From: a virus
Taxonomy: Duplodnaviria > Caudoviricetes
IMG/VR virus record: IMGVR_UViG_3300012173_000012
Location: 1-24,133 of that record
Direction: 5' to 3' (one strand)
Length of the DNA: 24,133 bases
Both the position numbers and the translations under genes were made by a program. This document shows positions 4,893 to 23,174 of this stretch, one piece after another. The notes beneath the pieces are model-generated. The model did no database searches, was not told the origin of the DNA, and saw nothing but the letters and a program-made list of their open reading frames with translations. Each line of letters begins with the position of its first letter. Within the stretch, counting starts at the first letter, position 1.

Positions 4893-6986
4893 TTAAATAA
4901 TCTCTCCTCTTTTAATTGCTACGAACGATGATTTTCCAGCAATCCAATCATCGCTATTTGCCATGTGTGCCATTCCGGGACCAACATATAGGCTTGTATC
5001 CTTTTTATTTTCTATTCTCCTAAAATTTCCTGGAACATCGGTATAATCTACCAAGACTGTATTGGAATTATCTAAGTCATGAATATATTTATGAATATAC
5101 AGAAGACTAGTATATCTATCTTTTCTTAGTCTTCCTTTTACCGATTTGCCCTCCGTGGCTCCGGTAGCTTTTGCCATAGTTGGAATATCAAACTTATCTT
5201 TTCCAGTAGCGGTTTCCATCTGTTGTATTGTGCATAATTCATTTTTAAGCTCTTCTATATTATGAACGCATTCCTCAAAGGTATCTATATATATACTTTT
5301 AGCCTTTTCTATCATTAATGCAGCTTGCATAACGACAGTATCGAAAGATGGAAACAATATCTTTTTGGTTTCTAAACTTTTATGAAGACAAATATTGCAG
5401 CTAGAATTAAATTCATTTGTTGGCTTAACAAGATTCAATATATGTGGACCATCTGTTTCTTCGTCTGTAGTGTTCATTTCATCTTCTTTTATAATCTCAT
5501 ATATAGGAAATTCTCCCAAATCTTTATTTATAGTTTTTTTGTCTCTTAACATTTCTGCCAATGGATACCCACATCCCTGACTATCCATTTCTATTCTTAC
5601 AGGAGAGAATAATTTGCATAATTTTCTTATATGAGAACAGCAATACGCATAGTAGTCACAGGCATCTATCAATCCAGCCTTTTTATTTTTATTAAATACA
5701 GTCTTATTGCAACTCCAACAATAAACTATTCTATAGTGATTTTTCCAAAACTCCAATATTACTATCCCAATATTATCTCTTTCAGCGCCAGGATCAATTC
5801 CTATGCCGTATTTCCTACCTTTAACTCCATTCATCATAGGGTTAAATTCTATTTCTCCGTATGGCGTGACAACAGGAGAATGTGGCTTTGAAGTACAAGA
5901 TTCTATCATACTTCTGGAAAAGAAACCATTTGAGTCCCTAACAAATATAGCCTGATATTCCATTAAATATATATTACTAGGTAACGTAGCTTTTGCATTA
6001 GCTAATTGTCTTTTATCTAGTAATCCATCTGGAAGATAGTCTGATGGGAGACGAATAATTGCATAGTCTTTGTAATTGAATTTATCTGGTACGTTTAATG
6101 GGCCTCCAAAAATTTCCGCAACCTTGCCCGGTTCTCCTCTGCTTTTAATAATGTCTTTCCATGTATTGAACTTAGTGGCAAAATGATTAAAATGATAATC
6201 AGCAGTCCCGGCACATATAATTTGATTGCCTTTAAGTATTTGATTATTTATACTTTGTATATGAGAACTTGGAATACCCATTTTTCTTAATTTTTTCTCT
6301 ATAGCTAATTTTCTTGCTTCTTCAACTGGGCTTTTAGTTGTAGCAGCGAAACCCCTCACCACAACATCAAATATATGTTGAGGAATTGATCCAAATTCGT
6401 CTGCAATAACACATGTCGCACGAAGACCTCTTATTCTACTCCCATCACCCAACGGAAGACTCGTGATAGTAGAATTACCTATTCTAAAATAACAACTATC
6501 CAACCCTTGTTTTGGGCCTATATTTTTACCACTACCAATTATACTTCTTAGTATTGGGGCGTCGTTCCATATATTTTGAATGTAATTAAAAACTAATTTT
6601 GATTGTCTAAGGCCAGCGCCAACTATTACTATTTTTGATCCAGGATCTAACAAAGCTTTAATTACAGAGTATACTGCTAATGTAAAGCTCTTTGATCCTC
6701 CACGACTGGCAACAAGCACGGGAAATGCAGTTTTCCAGAGAACTCTTAGGATAGCTGCCTGAATTGGAAATAGATCTATATTTAATATGGTCTTACAGGT
6801 CCATGAAATATAATCTACATTCAACATCTTGTCCACTATGTATTCATCAAAATTGCTATTTGATTCTTTAAGATCAGAAAAAATATGCTTATCTATTTTA
6901 GGAAGAGAATCCCTGTATGGGAAAAGATAAGAAAAATCACCCTCGTCAGTTTGCAAAAGATTATTTATTTGTTGAGAAATATTCAT
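4893..6986 (-). CDS. terL: Terminase large subunit
   Basis: Walker A-like ASRGGSKS, Walker B CVIADEFG, RGLRA, RNase H-type nuclease motif IGIDPG and C-terminal KDRYTSL. Confidence 0.92.
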   Translation of the reverse strand: MNISQQINNLLQTDEGDFSYLFPYRDSLPKIDKHIFSDLKESNSNFDEYIVDKMLNVDYISWTCKTILNIDLFPIQAAILRVLWKTAFPVLVASRGGSKSFTLAVYSVIKALLDPGSKIVIVGAGLRQSKLVFNYIQNIWNDAPILRSIIGSGKNIGPKQGLDSCYFRIGNSTITSLPLGDGSRIRGLRATCVIADEFGSIPQHIFDVVVRGFAATTKSPVEEARKLAIEKKLRKMGIPSSHIQSINNQILKGNQIICAGTADYHFNHFATKFNTWKDIIKSRGEPGKVAEIFGGPLNVPDKFNYKDYAIIRLPSDYLPDGLLDKRQLANAKATLPSNIYLMEYQAIFVRDSNGFFSRSMIESCTSKPHSPVVTPYGEIEFNPMMNGVKGRKYGIGIDPGAERDNIGIVILEFWKNHYRIVYCWSCNKTVFNKNKKAGLIDACDYYAYCCSHIRKLCKLFSPVRIEMDSQGCGYPLAEMLRDKKTINKDLGEFPIYEIIKEDEMNTTDEETDGPHILNLVKPTNEFNSSCNICLHKSLETKKILFPSFDTVVMQAALMIEKAKSIYIDTFEECVHNIEELKNELCTIQQMETATGKDKFDIPTMAKATGATEGKSVKGRLRKDRYTSLLYIHKYIHDLDNSNTVLVDYTDVPGNFRRIENKKDTSLYVGPGMAHMANSDDWIAGKSSFVAIKRGEII

Positions 6987-18379: not shown

Positions 18380-18739
18380 TTGATTCTCCTTTCTACTTAA
18401 TTATACCTAGCTGAGCCTGCTATTTTTACATAATTCGAAATTAATTGGCCCCCGGTTTTTTTGGGAAGTTTAGAAATCTTAAAAACGATTTGTTCTTTTG
18501 TCCCGGTTTTTGGGGGCCGGTTGCGTCTAAGCCCCCCGCGATTTTCGGACCCTATATCGCCCTTCCGTTATCGGACATAAAACCCCCCCACCCTATCGGA
18601 CCTTCTAAGCTCTTATAACCATACCTTATTTATCAGACTATCTTGCGTGACGACGCAAGCGTTATCAGACCATTTAATTATCAACACCTTCCGATAACTT
18701 ACCTATCTTATCACACCTAAAATATTTTCTTCTTCCCCC

Positions 18740-18768
18740 TTGCATTCCGCCCGATGGTATGCTATCAT
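18740..18768 (+). promoter_or_regulatory. sigma70-type promoter
   Basis: TTGCAT-17 bp-TATCAT with extended -10 TG, followed by a GGAGG SD. Confidence 0.75.
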
Positions 18769-18789
18769 TGTATTGGAGGAAATGAAACA

Positions 18790-18873
18790 ATGTTTACCCT
18801 AGCTATCATCGGTTTTGGTTCGATAACGGTTGGCGTACTATGGGCGCTTGCAATTAAAGCGGACCTTCTCTAA
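18790..18873 (+). CDS. 27 aa single-TM microprotein
   Basis: GGAGG SD; MFTLAIIGFGSITVGVLWALAIKADLL. Confidence 0.6.
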   Translation: MFTLAIIGFGSITVGVLWALAIKADLL

Positions 18874-18884
18874 GGAGCGATAAC

Positions 18885-19010
18885 GTGACAACCATCCGAG
18901 AATCCGCCTATCGAATTATCAGACGTTTCATCGTGTTATCAGACGGAACTACGATAGCATACTGGGACGTTGAAGAGACGGCGACCGATAACAAAGGAGA
19001 CTTATCGTGA
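18885..19010 (+). CDS. 41 aa hypothetical microprotein
   Basis: AAGGAG SD and GTG start; MTTIRESAYRIIRRFIVLSDGTTIAYWDV...; GTGA overlap with the next gene. Confidence 0.6.
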   Translation: MTTIRESAYRIIRRFIVLSDGTTIAYWDVEETATDNKGDLS

Positions 19011-19237
19011 CGATCTTTCCAGGTGACACTATCGGACTATTCGGCGAGATTAGCGGACATCGCGTCGAAGAAGTTATCGGACCAATGTTCGATGTTCGTG
19101 CGAAGTATTTATTGGACGATGGACGTGTCGTTCAATTATCGGACATTCACTCGCATCGTACCGAAACCGGACAGGACACTATAACCGAAACCAGATACGA
19201 TGGAGTTATTCGGACCATCGACCAGGACGACCGATAA
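19007..19237 (+). CDS. Hypothetical early protein
   Basis: AAAGGAG SD, GTG start, 76 aa. Confidence 0.7.
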   Translation: MTIFPGDTIGLFGEISGHRVEEVIGPMFDVRAKYLLDDGRVVQLSDIHSHRTETGQDTITETRYDGVIRTIDQDDR

Positions 19238-19249
19238 GGAGCAGATAGC

Positions 19250-19486
19250 ATGACCGAGAAAAACACTCATTCCTTCCCCGACCGTTTGAAGTTGCACTTG
19301 AACGAGAAGTTATGGGAATGCGTCCGAGAAGTATCGGATATATCGGACTTATACTTAATGTCCTATATCTGTCAAAGCGGAAACGAGCGTTATCGGATAT
19401 ACACGGACCCAGGATATTATCGGTCTGCGCAACGAGCGATAACCCACGAATTACCGGACCTTCGTCGACTCGCGGGAATGTCCTAG
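19250..19486 (+). CDS. Hypothetical early protein
   Basis: TAAGGAG SD, 78 aa. Confidence 0.7.
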   Translation: MTEKNTHSFPDRLKLHLNEKLWECVREVSDISDLYLMSYICQSGNERYRIYTDPGYYRSAQRAITHELPDLRRLAGMS

Positions 19487-19499
19487 AAGGAGAAGAGTT

Positions 19500-19682
19500 A
19501 TGGGAATGAGCGAAGGGGAAAAACTTTATCGGAAGTACAGGGACGATGGAATTATTATCGTCCACAGGAATGAAGTTTTCGGACGCGCAGCCGATGGTAT
19601 CTTGGTCCGAATAGGAGATACCGATAACATGGAATGCGTGTTCCTATATCTCGAAGACCGAGGCGGTCCCGATAACTGGTAG
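19500..19682 (+). CDS. Hypothetical early protein
   Basis: AAGGAG SD, 60 aa. Confidence 0.7.
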   Translation: MGMSEGEKLYRKYRDDGIIIVHRNEVFGRAADGILVRIGDTDNMECVFLYLEDRGGPDNW

Positions 19683-19692
19683 GAGCGATAAC

Positions 19693-19803
19693 ATGGAACA
19701 AGTTTTCTCGGACCTAGTGGCGAATATCGGGCATGTCGTTTATGTTCCGATAATCGTGGGAACCCTGACTATATTATCGGTCGTCCTCTGCAAGGGCCGA
19801 TAA
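19693..19803 (+). CDS. 36 aa single-TM microprotein
   Basis: AGGAG SD; MEQVFSDLVANIGHVVYVPIIVGTLTILSVVLCKGR. Confidence 0.6.
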   Translation: MEQVFSDLVANIGHVVYVPIIVGTLTILSVVLCKGR

Positions 19804-19814
19804 AGGAGAAGCGT

Positions 19815-20084
19815 ATGATTCTAGGACGTAAACGTACGGGTCAAAAATTTCCGGTCCTATTTCCGCGCGGAATGCGTCCGGTCGTCTTTTATCAGACGGA
19901 AAAAGTGGGCCTGTATTATCACGCCACGATTGTTAGGGTCGATAATCGGCGTGGTATTACATGGAATAAAGAATTTAGGGGAGAAACTGGAATCGGCTTG
20001 ACAACCGAGAAGGCGCTTGCTATGCTTAGACAACGATTGACCGAGACAGGATACACGTATGACGTACGGGAGGAGGTGAAGTGA
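19815..20084 (+). CDS. Hypothetical early protein
   Basis: AAAGGAG SD, 89 aa. Confidence 0.65.
   Translation: MILGRKRTGQKFPVLFPRGMRPVVFYQTEKVGLYYHATIVRVDNRRGITWNKEFRGETGIGLTTEKALAMLRQRLTETGYTYDVREEVK
19998..20026 (+). promoter_or_regulatory. sigma70-type promoter inside the 19815 ORF
   Basis: TTGACA-17 bp-TATGCT with extended -10 TG. Confidence 0.65.
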
Positions 20085-20281
20085 TACTTTACCTGACGTA
20101 TAAGCGCCGAAAATGGTTCGCCTATTCCGTGAAGCCGATAAGGTGGAATAGCGCGGCCGATCCTGATACGGCGTTATCGGGCCTGATAGAAGGATTGAGG
20201 AATATCGGTTGTAAGGCGCTTGTGTTGGGCGTTTGTCGACCGAGCAGGGAATTCTTGGAAGGAGAAAAAAATGAGAATTGA
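20081..20281 (+). CDS. Hypothetical early protein
   Basis: GGAGGAGGT SD, GTG start in a GTGA overlap. Confidence 0.65.
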   Translation: MILYLTYKRRKWFAYSVKPIRWNSAADPDTALSGLIEGLRNIGCKALVLGVCRPSREFLEGEKNEN

Positions 20282-20546
20282 AACGGTGAAGGTATCGGAC
20301 CTGAATATCGTGGTCGCCAAGCGCGGCCGAAAACCTGATCCTGAAGTTATCGCGCTTGTCAATTCGGTCCGAATTGCGCCGGATGGTACTGGTATCCGAG
20401 TTATGGCGCGCTCGGAACAGGAAGCCGATAAGTATTCGGCTAAGATTCGCGCCGCGGTCAAGAAGGCAGGATTTTCGGTTATTATCGGGCGCATCGCGGA
20501 GTCGTCCGATATTCTTGTTACGAAGAAAATTCCTGTTGACGGTTGA
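20271..20546 (+). CDS. Small basic putative DNA-binding protein (start reassigned to ATG 20271)
   Basis: AAGGAG SD; MRIETVKVSDLNIVVAKRGRKPDP... has an AT-hook-like KRGRKP. Confidence 0.65.
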   Translation: MRIETVKVSDLNIVVAKRGRKPDPEVIALVNSVRIAPDGTGIRVMARSEQEADKYSAKIRAAVKKAGFSVIIGRIAESSDILVTKKIPVDG

Positions 20547-20571
20547 CGTATCGCGCCGCGAGCGCTATACT
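20543..20571 (+). promoter_or_regulatory. sigma70-type promoter
   Basis: TTGACG-17 bp-TATACT, followed by a 5' hairpin CGCGCCTA/TGGGCGCG (20586-20604). Confidence 0.8.
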
Positions 20572-20634
20572 GGTATGATCCGAGTCGCGCCTATTGTGGG
20601 CGCGTGTGTTGAAACGACCGAGAAGGAGAATTTT

Positions 20635-21087
20635 ATGGCGAATCAGGTACTGTCCGAGAAGAAGAAGGTCTCCATTGACGAGGCAGGGTTTCGGAATGCG
20701 TCCAATTGTTATGGGCGCGACCGGAAGATTGTTGACGCTATCGTGTCTATCGGACGCGCGAAGGGCGATCCGGTTTCCGCGCTGAATTCCGCCGTATCGG
20801 TCCTGGCAAAAATGCGAGGCCTCGATACGCACGCGCAGCGTATGCTTAAGGCCGTTATGGGTCTTGACGAAAATGTCGATCCGGTCAATGCGTACGCGCT
20901 CGCGCAGGAAACTATCGGCCTGATTGTCGAATTCTCGGAGCGCGGGTCGACGTACACTCCTGCGGCGCGTCTCGGTTTCGGTTCTGATCCTTCCCATATT
21001 ATCGCGCGGAAGATTCTCGGAACGGATACCAGCGCCGCGAAGGTCCGCGCTACTTTCGCCAAGGTCTCGACGATTCCTGTGGCTTAA
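20635..21087 (+). CDS. 150 aa helical hypothetical protein (start reassigned to ATG 20635)
   Basis: AAGGAG SD, downstream of the 20543 promoter; MANQVLSEKKKVSIDEAGFRNAS...STIPVA. Confidence 0.75.
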   Translation: MANQVLSEKKKVSIDEAGFRNASNCYGRDRKIVDAIVSIGRAKGDPVSALNSAVSVLAKMRGLDTHAQRMLKAVMGLDENVDPVNAYALAQETIGLIVEFSERGSTYTPAARLGFGSDPSHIIARKILGTDTSAAKVRATFAKVSTIPVA

Positions 21088-21939
21088 TTCGCGTCAATGT
21101 TCGGCGCGAACGCACCCTGGGATTGTTGCCAACGGGTCTCAGGGTGCGCTGCGCTGTACGTCGACGCTATCGGGTAACTACCGAATAAATAGGCGCATAA
21201 TATAGCGCGCCGGCGAACGTGCGGAAGCCGAAGTAACAAGTTTATTATCGGTATGTAGCGGGGTTTCGATTCGTTATCGGGCGACCGCTGGGGAGGGGAG
21301 AATCGTAGGGAAAAACGTTGCGCGTTTTAACGGTCGAATTGAGCGCTAAGGAAAGCGCACAATAGGTCCAGCGCAACGGAATAACCTACGGTTGACAATC
21401 CGCCCTATCGTGGATTAGACCACGTATTCGACTACGGAACGGAATAGGAAAGAAGCGATAGAATAACCTGACGATATATCGAAGCGGACTAGAAAAACGG
21501 ATCGACTATCCGTTGTCGCGCACGATATACAAACGGCAGGGTAAAATTATCGCGTTAAATTCCTGTTCTAAAAGCGCACGAAGCGCTAACGTAGGCCGAT
21601 AATCGCGCAAGTGATATTCCTTCTTCACGCCATAGGTCCGTCAATATCGCATTAAAAGAAGATCCGAAAATGGTCAAAAGCGGCTTGTCACCGTTATTAG
21701 GTCGTTCAGGGTTTTCGCGTTATTCCCCTAAGTGAAAATGCCGCGCCCGATAGGGAGAGCGGGAACGATAACTGTAGCGCGCGATGGTTCGGACAATTCC
21801 GAAGGAAGCTCCATCGTTAAATAACCCCTGAATAAACAAGCAATTATTTGGGGGAATTCAATAGTTCAATTCATTTGTCACACCTACGCTAATTAGCGGC
21901 CCAAAACGGATGCAAGTCCGCGATTATTTGGGGTTTTTT
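21088..21939 (+). ncRNA. Putative large structured non-coding RNA (~850 nt), family unassigned
   Basis: No credible ORF. Many nested helices with G-U pairs on the + strand, GCAA tetraloops, A-rich linkers, and a terminal stem plus T6 (see findings). Confidence 0.7.
21900..21939 (+). terminator. Terminal stem and U-tract closing the putative ncRNA
   Basis: CCCAAA/TTTGGG encloses CGGAT-GCAA-GTCCG, then TTTTTT at 21934-39. Confidence 0.5.
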
Positions 21940-22119
21940 ATGGTGTGATTGTTTCACGTAGTATAAAGTATCCTGCGCCTAATTAAAAGCAGGGGACGAT
22001 GGAAAAATTGTATAGTCAAGAAATTGGCTTGCAATAATACGCCCTAAGTCGGGTTCATTCCGACCTGGGAAATGGTGGTTCAATTCCGCCCGTGGAACAT
22101 TGTCTAAAAGGAGAAAGAA

Positions 22120-22341
22120 ATGAGAATTGAGTATGGCAGTCAGAAATCCAGGATTATGTTTGATGAGCTTCATGAAGGAGATTGTTTCATTTTTGGGGAT
22201 TATCACTATGTAAAGAGTAGAAAGGCTCTTTCATGGCCTCAAGTAAATGCTTTCAATCTGAGTCTTAATATACCCGTGCAATTCGAAGACAGCCACGTCA
22301 CAGTAAAGCCAGTCACAGCAGTAATCCAAATTCACCCATGA
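22120..22341 (+). CDS. Hypothetical protein, single-domain paralog of 17394-17780
   Basis: AAGGAG SD; FDELHEGDCF..YVK..NAFNL. Confidence 0.7.
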   Translation: MRIEYGSQKSRIMFDELHEGDCFIFGDYHYVKSRKALSWPQVNAFNLSLNIPVQFEDSHVTVKPVTAVIQIHP

Positions 22342-22503: not shown

Positions 22504-22650
22504 ATGAAATGCCCAAAATGCGGTCTAAAAATGGGCTATCAAGAATTCGAAGACGAAGATGGTTGGAATTACCAGTGGGTCTGCGCAGGCACAGAATCCC
22601 AAGATGGCTGTTGGAATTACGTGGACTTAGAGAAACCACTAGAGAATTAA
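22504..22650 (+). CDS. 48 aa zinc-ribbon protein
   Basis: AAGGAG SD; MKCPKCGLKMGYQEFEDEDGWNYQWVCAGTESQDGCWNY. Confidence 0.7.
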   Translation: MKCPKCGLKMGYQEFEDEDGWNYQWVCAGTESQDGCWNYVDLEKPLEN

Positions 22651-22740
22651 CAACTTTGCTTTTCTTTTTCACGAATTCTATTTTCCTTTCTTTGATCGCA
22701 GTCTAATGGGTAGTTTGATACCTGGAAAGGGGTAAATCAT

Positions 22741-22932: not shown

Positions 22933-23174
22933 GAGAGGGTCTTTTCTCTTTCAAGATTTCTATCTCCTCTCTGTGTCCTTCTTGTGTGTTGTTAGTAATA
23001 TGAAGTAATCAAATGGGGGATTAAATGCCTATCATCATTGCCTTCATCATCCTTTGTATTGCTATCTGCCATTTTTGGCTAAAAGACAGGGGAGTTTAGC
23101 AACCTGCTTTTCTCTTTTACGAATTCTATCCCTTCTCTCTTTGTGTTCCTGTGTGTGGTGTTATGGAGTGCAAT

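Follow-up and report, generated by a model that had tools for sequence, protein, structure and literature searches.

To our knowledge, only a handful of bacterial and phage RNAs this large and this structured are known, and the function of GOLLD and ROOL is still open. The gene of the OLE partner, oapA, adjoins the OLE RNA. GOLLD and ROOL are described as forming RNA-only cages (PMC12286853), and over ten thousand viral candidate RNAs are reported in PMC10690425. No description of the RNA analysed here was found in the literature, and six supplement files of PMC10690425 hold no match to it, though others of that paper could list fragments. A first-pass annotation of the DNA had proposed a large, plus-strand, multi-domain non-coding RNA, and this is supported by homologous modules at the same position in related phages and by two-sided changes at predicted base pairs.

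The gene-free stretch and its predicted fold

The window, i.e., the whole stretch of 24,133 nucleotides that was analysed, comes from a tailed phage and carries terminase, portal and cement genes on its minus strand. The identical sequence is present within a metagenome contig of 168,664 bp, giving an uncultured phage of about 169 kb; its best cultured-phage terminase matches are only 23–26% identical and it has no close cultured relative. Scans of bacterial and archaeal genomes (two) were empty and thus gave no clue to the host. From about 18400 to about 21940 the GC content is 49% compared to 32% outside, and the motif CGATA/TATCG, which continues into the RNA element, shows an enrichment of about 13-fold. 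The gene-free stretch forms the final 850 nt of this island, which ends sharply near the 3′ end of the RNA. Short plus-strand genes behind sigma-70-like promoters lie in the island, and these promoters together with its position suggest that it is the early region of the phage. The following features of the locus are used below:

18400..21940, no strand assigned, GC-rich, putatively early island enriched in CGATA/TATCG (GC and motif counts)
20543..20571, plus strand, sigma-70-type promoter-like site (10/12 consensus matches), predicted start of a shared early transcript
20635..21087, plus strand, 150-aa gene, putative RNA partner (profile search, family alignment, helical model)
21088..21949, plus strand, large structured non-coding RNA of about 860 nt with predicted ends (folding, pair probabilities, homology, RNA-library contigs)
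21950..22099, plus strand, tRNA-like module with acceptor-like stem, inserted hairpins and a T-arm at 22074–22090 (predicted fold), a predicted processing signal

Some further observations were made in and around the island. The sequence TTATCnGAC occurs eight times on its plus strand and its reverse not at all, and a CGATA/TATCG-rich island also lies upstream in the related loci L008–L016 and L027–L029. A strict search of the island for an E. coli-type XerD arm found none. A near-identical 23-nt region comprising ribosome binding site and start (20259–20281 and 22108–22130) precedes two otherwise different small genes flanking the locus. Between small genes 3′ of the RNA, a pyrimidine-rich repeat of about 55 nt is present in two copies (22941–22994 and 23107–23163; 79% identical), part of which recurs at 22647–22681.

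The stretch 21088..21939 is gene-free as annotated: each of the six frames contains 8–19 stops, the longest stop-free runs are 47 codons (plus strand) and 79 codons (minus strand), and there is no credible open reading frame. Its folding energy of −309.5 kcal/mol corresponds to z = −5.5 on the plus strand and −4.4 on the minus strand (20 dinucleotide shuffles each), which is beyond chance. Such an excess might be a by-product of island composition, as the island is GC- and CpG-rich and carries a self-complementary motif; in the gene-free stretch the observed/expected ratio of CpG is 1.8 and the motif density is high. Shuffles preserving 4-mers (eight each) were added since CGATA/TATCG complements itself. 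Under these the candidate still gives z = −4.4, compared to 0.0, −0.1, −0.5 and −0.4 for four island control windows of equal length; two downstream control windows give −2.0 and −1.6. Together with the compensatory changes in relatives described below, this already largely refutes composition as the source of the folding, and next to no weight is left for it.

Within the window, no Rfam family reached its gathering score and up to E = 10 only chance matches appeared, placing the RNA outside Rfam, including GOLLD, ROOL, OLE and the introns against which a comparison had been proposed. ARAGORN called no tRNA or tmRNA in the stretch. The absence of a tRNA, tmRNA, RNase P or intron signature, as noted in the first-pass annotation, therefore agrees with both programs, by which tRNA, tmRNA and RNase P RNA were rejected as candidates. 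A group I or group II intron was rejected as well, as the stretch starts after the stop codon of a complete family gene and has no Rfam intron match. The same applies to HEARO or OMEGA RNA, as the linked reading frame encodes an all-helical protein of 105–150 aa with no match to a nuclease family (HNH/RuvC; IsrB, IscB, TnpB).

Pair probabilities were derived from a partition function over 21088–22110. The predicted domains, with the basis of each, are:

21091..21167, plus strand, Domain 1, long irregular hairpin that immediately follows the stop codon (pair probability 0.96–1.0)
21170..21184, plus strand, Domain 2, short hairpin whose UAACU loop is conserved (same loop in the related loci L127, L129, L130 and L131)
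21257..21289, plus strand, Domain 4, two-helix hairpin, best-conserved module of the family (homolog alignments, model R3)
21301..21393, plus strand, Domain 5, nested arm with CGTAGG/CCTACG and CGTTGCGC/GCGCAACG (pair probabilities)
21441..21569, plus strand, long six-helix arm with A-rich internal loops between the helices (pair probability 0.88–0.98)
21593..21627, plus strand, sequence block that also occurs in L129/L130, with a GCAA loop (E 7e-4)
21646..21949, plus strand, 3′ domain, arm 21646–21706:21895–21949 closing a multi-branch insert (predicted fold)

The fold drawn initially from the letters survives in part. All eleven helices that had been given with coordinates are fully complementary at their positions, and nine of the 14 helices drawn are supported by a pair probability of at least 0.88: those at 21111, 21304, 21316, 21455, 21467, 21475 and 21496 have means of 0.88–1.00, and GCGCT/AGCGC and CGATGG/CCATCG reach 0.99. 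Five are not supported. The helix 21088/21103 has a probability of 0.00 and its bases sit in the longer hairpin 21091–21167; AATCCGC/GTGGATT (21397/21410) reaches 0.12; GGAAT/ATTCC (21441/21559) has 0.00, the same arm forming in a shifted register with 21560–21569; TTCAGGG/CCCTGAA has 0.00; and CGTAGG/CCTACG (21590/21883), which had been drawn as closing the 3′ domain, also has 0.00 and costs 10 kcal/mol when forced. GCAA is present at 21607 and 21912 as described. The U-tract 21934–21939, proposed as the terminal element, pairs inside the long arm 21646–21706:21895–21949 in the best fold, and since a contig from an RNA library (21895–22042) also crosses it, it is probably not the RNA end; the element probably extends to about 21949, followed by the tRNA-like module. 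Overall, the absence of genes and nine helices of the initial description hold and the folding is beyond chance, whereas the 3′ domain and the terminator as drawn do not. For the 3′ domain, which has no alignable homolog and shows no covariation with any homolog, the predicted fold is doubtful, with two candidates within 6 kcal/mol; the alternative restoring the terminal GCAA hairpin is 5.9 kcal/mol worse. In the predicted fold, 145 of the 306 unpaired bases are A.

Relatives of the locus and covariation

DNA searches found nothing: blastn against 50,697 phage records gave no match to the stretch, and the window RNA's own helix pattern was not found in viral contigs. The upstream gene was therefore used to find relatives. 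A scan of viral contigs with the single protein and a search with the family protein in the 50,697 phage records gave none. A profile search with the upstream protein returned 36 proteins, 34 of which form a coherent family; P0011 and P0036 were dropped as spurious cadherin matches. Family alignments led to 11 distinct viral loci, L010 being left out as a near-duplicate of L009, with terminases 52–61% identical to that of the window. Nine more came from scanning for terminases (80 loci) and then running the profile on 50 of the records so obtained. The family gene is thus present in 20 distinct related phage records with terminases 52–63% identical to the window's. Metagenome scanning yielded only three copies of the window's own phage. 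L006 and L007 are identical over their overlap and L005 differs outside the RNA only, so no covariation can be drawn from them; L018 was rejected as a chance motif match. Record G020 (97% complete) has no match to the gene, but its contig begins inside the motif island, so this is not a true absence.

In the terminase scan, the matches of G004, G006, G007, G008, G012, G013 and G014 are split inside long open frames at about residue 182–199 or 345–357, suggesting inteins at two sites; the G006 terminase has one TGA in the last piece.

For the 800 nt following the gene, z is negative in all 21 rows, the window included, and at or below −3.8 in 16 of them (10 trinucleotide shuffles per row; L131 read from +690 onwards, L132 only 548 nt long). 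In the 20 related loci, Rfam reports tRNAs only. The RNAs belong to subtypes between which there is large domain turnover. Type A is the commonest, its members being 56–70% identical among six. In type B (L027:4256–5200 and L029:4232–5350), the stop codon is immediately followed by a minimal tRNA-like element and then by a structured RNA that can be aligned to neither type A nor the window and ends in a clear terminator-like hairpin; L029 has about 190 nt extra compared to L027.

In type A, two-sided changes occur at 84 of 227 predicted pairs among six sequences and at 150 of 267 among nine. In a comparison of L129 and L130 (88% identical), where the structure of either sequence was checked against its partner, 17/17 and 18/20 two-sided changes keep the pair, and the type B pair L027/L029 gives a weaker signal (14/18 and 6/11). 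For the window RNA (W) itself, a four-row alignment has 59 of 60 cells paired and two-sided changes at 4 of 15 pairs, all from L128, while a second one (W, L127, L129, L130) is 91.9% paired with two-sided changes at 6 of 19 pairs, distributed over Domain 1 (4/14) and Domain 2 (2/5); these four-row structures were chosen from the sequences' own folds and lean towards themselves, and two rows are 88% identical. The GGUC/GGUC tandem G-U helix of Domain 5 (21332–21335/21365–21368) is invariant in four of four rows, and its central G-U/U-G pairs in nine of nine type A rows.

This evidence bears on whether the stretch acts as DNA, i.e., as hairpins or cruciforms ending the first-injected region or as a field of protein-binding motifs with incidental transcription. 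The stretch does end the GC-rich island, the roughly 13-fold enriched CGATA/TATCG runs through it, and its minus strand also folds well (z −4.4). However, at 174 type A pairs predicted from both strands, G-U and A-C cells stand at 109:39 on the plus strand, and at 38:13 when G-U is forbidden in folding. This excess of about 3:1 on the strand of the gene points to a plus-strand RNA and not to a symmetric DNA cruciform, in line with the earlier argument from G-U pairs. Moreover, the tandem G-U helix is invariant, the helices are short and nested instead of long perfect inverted repeats, and T-loop modules flank them. A DNA-level signal is therefore very improbable, and we hold with high confidence that the stretch is a real structured RNA.

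In type A RNAs (e.g., L013:4440–4455 and 5240–5260), the 5′ part contains an unpaired, conserved CCCAU whose complement is the GUGGG loop of the terminal hairpin at the 3′ end; this is possibly an end-to-end pseudoknot, as seen by eye only.

The position of the window RNA within this family follows from several searches. It is not detected by type A sequence profiles or by the models R1 and R2. Searched against the 20 whole loci, it matches only the syntenic stretch of L129 (1.4e-8), L130 (6.2e-8) and L127 (0.012), and its reversed and complemented controls have no match in the loci. Control DNA from the island reaches comparable scores in searches of other islands (E to 9e-14), so composition of motif-rich island DNA can inflate sequence scores. 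Against a profile of L129/L130, the window RNA scores 15.5 bits, and the best of 300 shuffles keeping 2-, 4- and 5-mers scores 0.3. Model R1, built from type A only, finds L128–L130 (E 2e-5 to 2e-3), and model R3, built from W and L128–L130, recovers the same 5′ module from 12 of 17 further loci with E ≤ 0.025, the E-values being rough; L132 follows at E 0.21, and R3 has no match in L027, L029, L131 and L133. Applied to 27 further records, R1 found nothing, including in G051; since R3 found the G051 locus, the blank of R1 shows nothing. The shared modules are the first hairpin, the hairpin with the UAACU loop, the two-helix hairpin, the GGUC/GGUC tandem G-U helix and the 35-nt block with a GNRA loop, which is GCAA in the window and GCGA and GUGA in L129/L130. 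The long arm 21441–21569 has no alignable sequence in L129/L130 and may be homologous to their arm by its like position and build.

Window and type A are linked through two intermediates, and the linked part is mainly the 5′ third together with a single short block; on this basis the window RNA very likely belongs to the same family. The evidence supports that, far from being a lone element, it is a very divergent representative of an RNA that occurs across the clade and goes with the upstream gene. Of the alternatives originally left open, a new class or a distant member of one, the probable answer is a divergent member of an RNA family without Rfam match. The window copy shows how far the family has diverged and that members are missed when a model is built from the common subtype.

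The upstream gene, the tRNA-like module and a putative ribonucleoprotein

Of 12 loci tested, 11 have the −35/−10 pattern before the family gene. Family proteins have about 105–125 aa in most members and 150 aa in the window. The member P0015 was modelled as an all-helical protein of five helices (pLDDT 91). All 32 of 32 members carry a net positive charge on their C-terminal 25 residues (mean +4.7), and the rest has a mean of −4.3; the C-terminal helix is basic. This would be compatible with nucleic-acid binding and could equally concern DNA, e.g., the island motif. The family protein has no match in Pfam or PHROG and none to a nuclease family; the best hit of a PDB sequence search has E 0.14. 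A fold search with the P0015 model, which is not the window's protein, gave at best Z 3.6 in the PDB (rmsd 3.9, 49 aligned) and no BFVD match at E ≤ 0.001. The best ESM Atlas score was an uninformative 0.78.

A conserved structured 5′ leader lies about 250 nt before the family gene, between promoter and start codon, in type A loci (L008, L009, L011–L016, L028, L132–L135), and the window has only a short hairpin (20586–20604) there. In L131 (G017:49421–51223), about 700 nt resembling a repeated promoter region lie between the family gene and the structured stretch; they are followed by a promoter and by the structured stretch starting with the UAACU hairpin, possibly an RNA with its own promoter. 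Gene and RNA can thus be uncoupled, and their adjacency is not absolute.

The acceptor/T-arm shape is what RNase P and RNase Z bind to as substrate, which makes trimming at the module 21950–22099 a plausible way to generate the RNA end. The module has large inserts and is not called a tRNA by ARAGORN or Rfam. Its T-arm pattern occurs 955–1151 nt after the stop codon in 8 of 21 loci, directly after it in two and at 1457 in one; it is absent in ten of the 21 loci and has no occurrence in an 18.4-kb core.

One metatranscriptome run (X1) contains half of the sampled words. Its five contigs on 12.1 kb comprise three within 21257–22042 (21257–21483, 21513–21779 and 21895–22042, all without mismatches) and two elsewhere, and the third crosses the U-tract into the tRNA-like module. 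Contig depth is 3–5 and unstranded, the run was chosen with this very stretch, and DNA carry-over is possible. The metatranscriptome comparison proposed at the outset hence yields low-depth contigs over the stretch and no strand information, weakly supporting that the stretch is transcribed. That no X1 contig covers the upstream gene carries no weight either way. A second run, X2 (share 0.16), is probably DNA; it contains one identical 203-nt piece and was not counted as expression evidence.

The reading we prefer, with somewhat better than even confidence, is an early ribonucleoprotein, in which the RNA gene of about 860 nt would be co-transcribed with the 150-aa gene, trimmed at the tRNA-like module and bound by protein as a scaffold. 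Judging from promoter and island position, a single early transcript from the host-type promoter 20543–20571 would carry both gene and RNA. The RNA is predicted to fold into a multi-domain scaffold, its end might be cut at the tRNA mimic by RNase P/Z-type cleavage, and the small basic co-encoded protein might bind it, forming a ribonucleoprotein that would be active during the first minutes of infection and would most likely serve host takeover or counter-defence. That the RNA forms a complex with the upstream protein in particular is a tentative proposal with somewhat less than an even chance, and any specific biological role is doubtful at present. As a speculative outlook of similarly low confidence, the earliest products of this clade might include a kilobase RNA scaffold together with a dedicated small protein whose fold is not recognised, the two constituting a new type of ribonucleoprotein for takeover or counter-defence, with the RNA end cut free at a tRNA mimic, the 3′ domains swapped between lineages and the 5′ core with its tandem G-U helix kept fixed.

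Alternatively, the RNA might be real and independent of the protein, assembling as an RNA-only multimer (cage or dimer) by analogy to GOLLD and ROOL, with the gene merely sharing a strong early promoter. Its size, the long arms with A-rich loops, the conserved GNRA loop and the tRNA-adjacent position resemble these RNAs, and the structured stretch of L131 may have its own promoter. However, the large domain turnover between subtypes fits poorly with many conserved contacts, and gene and RNA stay adjacent across phages whose RNAs no longer align. Furthermore, the perfect palindromes of 8–12 nt overlap predicted helices and not hairpin loops, and a kissing-loop search returned AU-rich 5–6-mers only and no convincing kissing pair. 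We consider such a multimer unlikely, yet it is the alternative to be taken most seriously.

Less probable still is that the early mRNA has here a structured 3′ region acting in cis, serving stability, processing or attenuation ahead of the tRNA-like modules and later genes, or that the stretch is a relic ribozyme or intron, instead of a trans-acting RNA. The element starts at the stop codon, neither a terminator nor a promoter lies in between, an RNA contig crosses into the downstream module, and type A loci also have the structured 5′ leader. Nevertheless, about 900 nt with 150 of 267 pairs covarying is well beyond what known bacterial UTR elements need, no intron or ribozyme of Rfam matches, and no gene is interrupted.

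Comparison with known large RNAs

The early ribonucleoprotein that we favour can be set against the described systems. The RNA resembles GOLLD in being longer than 800 nt (about 860 nt), multi-domain, encoded by a phage (terminase and portal lie in the window), located near tRNAs or tRNA-like elements and divided into separable conserved and variable halves, as GOLLD is described in PMC12286853 and PMC5737381. Its tRNA neighbourhood consists of the tRNA-like module 21950–22099, and ARAGORN calls further tRNAs in L007. Past the window end, these are two degenerate tRNA-like genes (L007:8862–8934 and L007:9746–9820), both Leu(taa) and scattered singly among early genes. In contrast to GOLLD, described with a conserved 3′ and a variable 5′ half, the conserved half here is the 5′ one, and a type A model of the 3′ region misses the window and L127–L131. 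GOLLD is described as rising during lysis, whereas the phage RNA here would be made early, and it lies in a putative early operon behind one dedicated small gene. The GOLLD model of Rfam has no match in the window at gathering score or at E ≤ 10, and none in the 20 related loci.

With ROOL it shares being a large ornate RNA with few invariant nucleotides, found in phages near tRNAs (PMC5737381, PMC12286853). ROOL is described as having about 580 nt and three pseudoknots, compared to 860–1050 nt here, and its Rfam model matches neither the window nor the 20 related loci. The non-coding transcripts lnc001 and lnc002 of Staphylococcus phage K, of 0.6–1.15 kb, are likewise reported with early or tRNA promoters and beside tRNA genes (PMC9241854); phage K is unrelated, has no sequence match to the window RNA and serves as an analogue only.

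OLE is described as a large structured RNA that works as a ribonucleoprotein (PMC12054373, PMC3413148). It is chromosomal in Bacillota, of about 600 nt and highly conserved in sequence, whereas the window RNA is phage-borne and divergent. The OLE model of Rfam has no match in the window, and the neighbour here is a small, soluble-looking helical protein without Pfam or PHROG match and not of the OapA type. The phage RNA may nonetheless work like OLE in binding the protein of its neighbouring gene, for which synteny and the basic C-terminus are what is seen.

As a summary, this is a large ornate phage RNA akin to GOLLD and ROOL in size, phage context and tRNA neighbourhood that fails the GOLLD, ROOL and OLE models. 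The family adds a handle that GOLLD and ROOL lack, namely one small conserved protein encoded directly before the RNA, and its natural variants differ by whole domains. Whether such an RNA forms an RNA-only cage or a ribonucleoprotein is thus directly testable in vitro, without culturing the phage.
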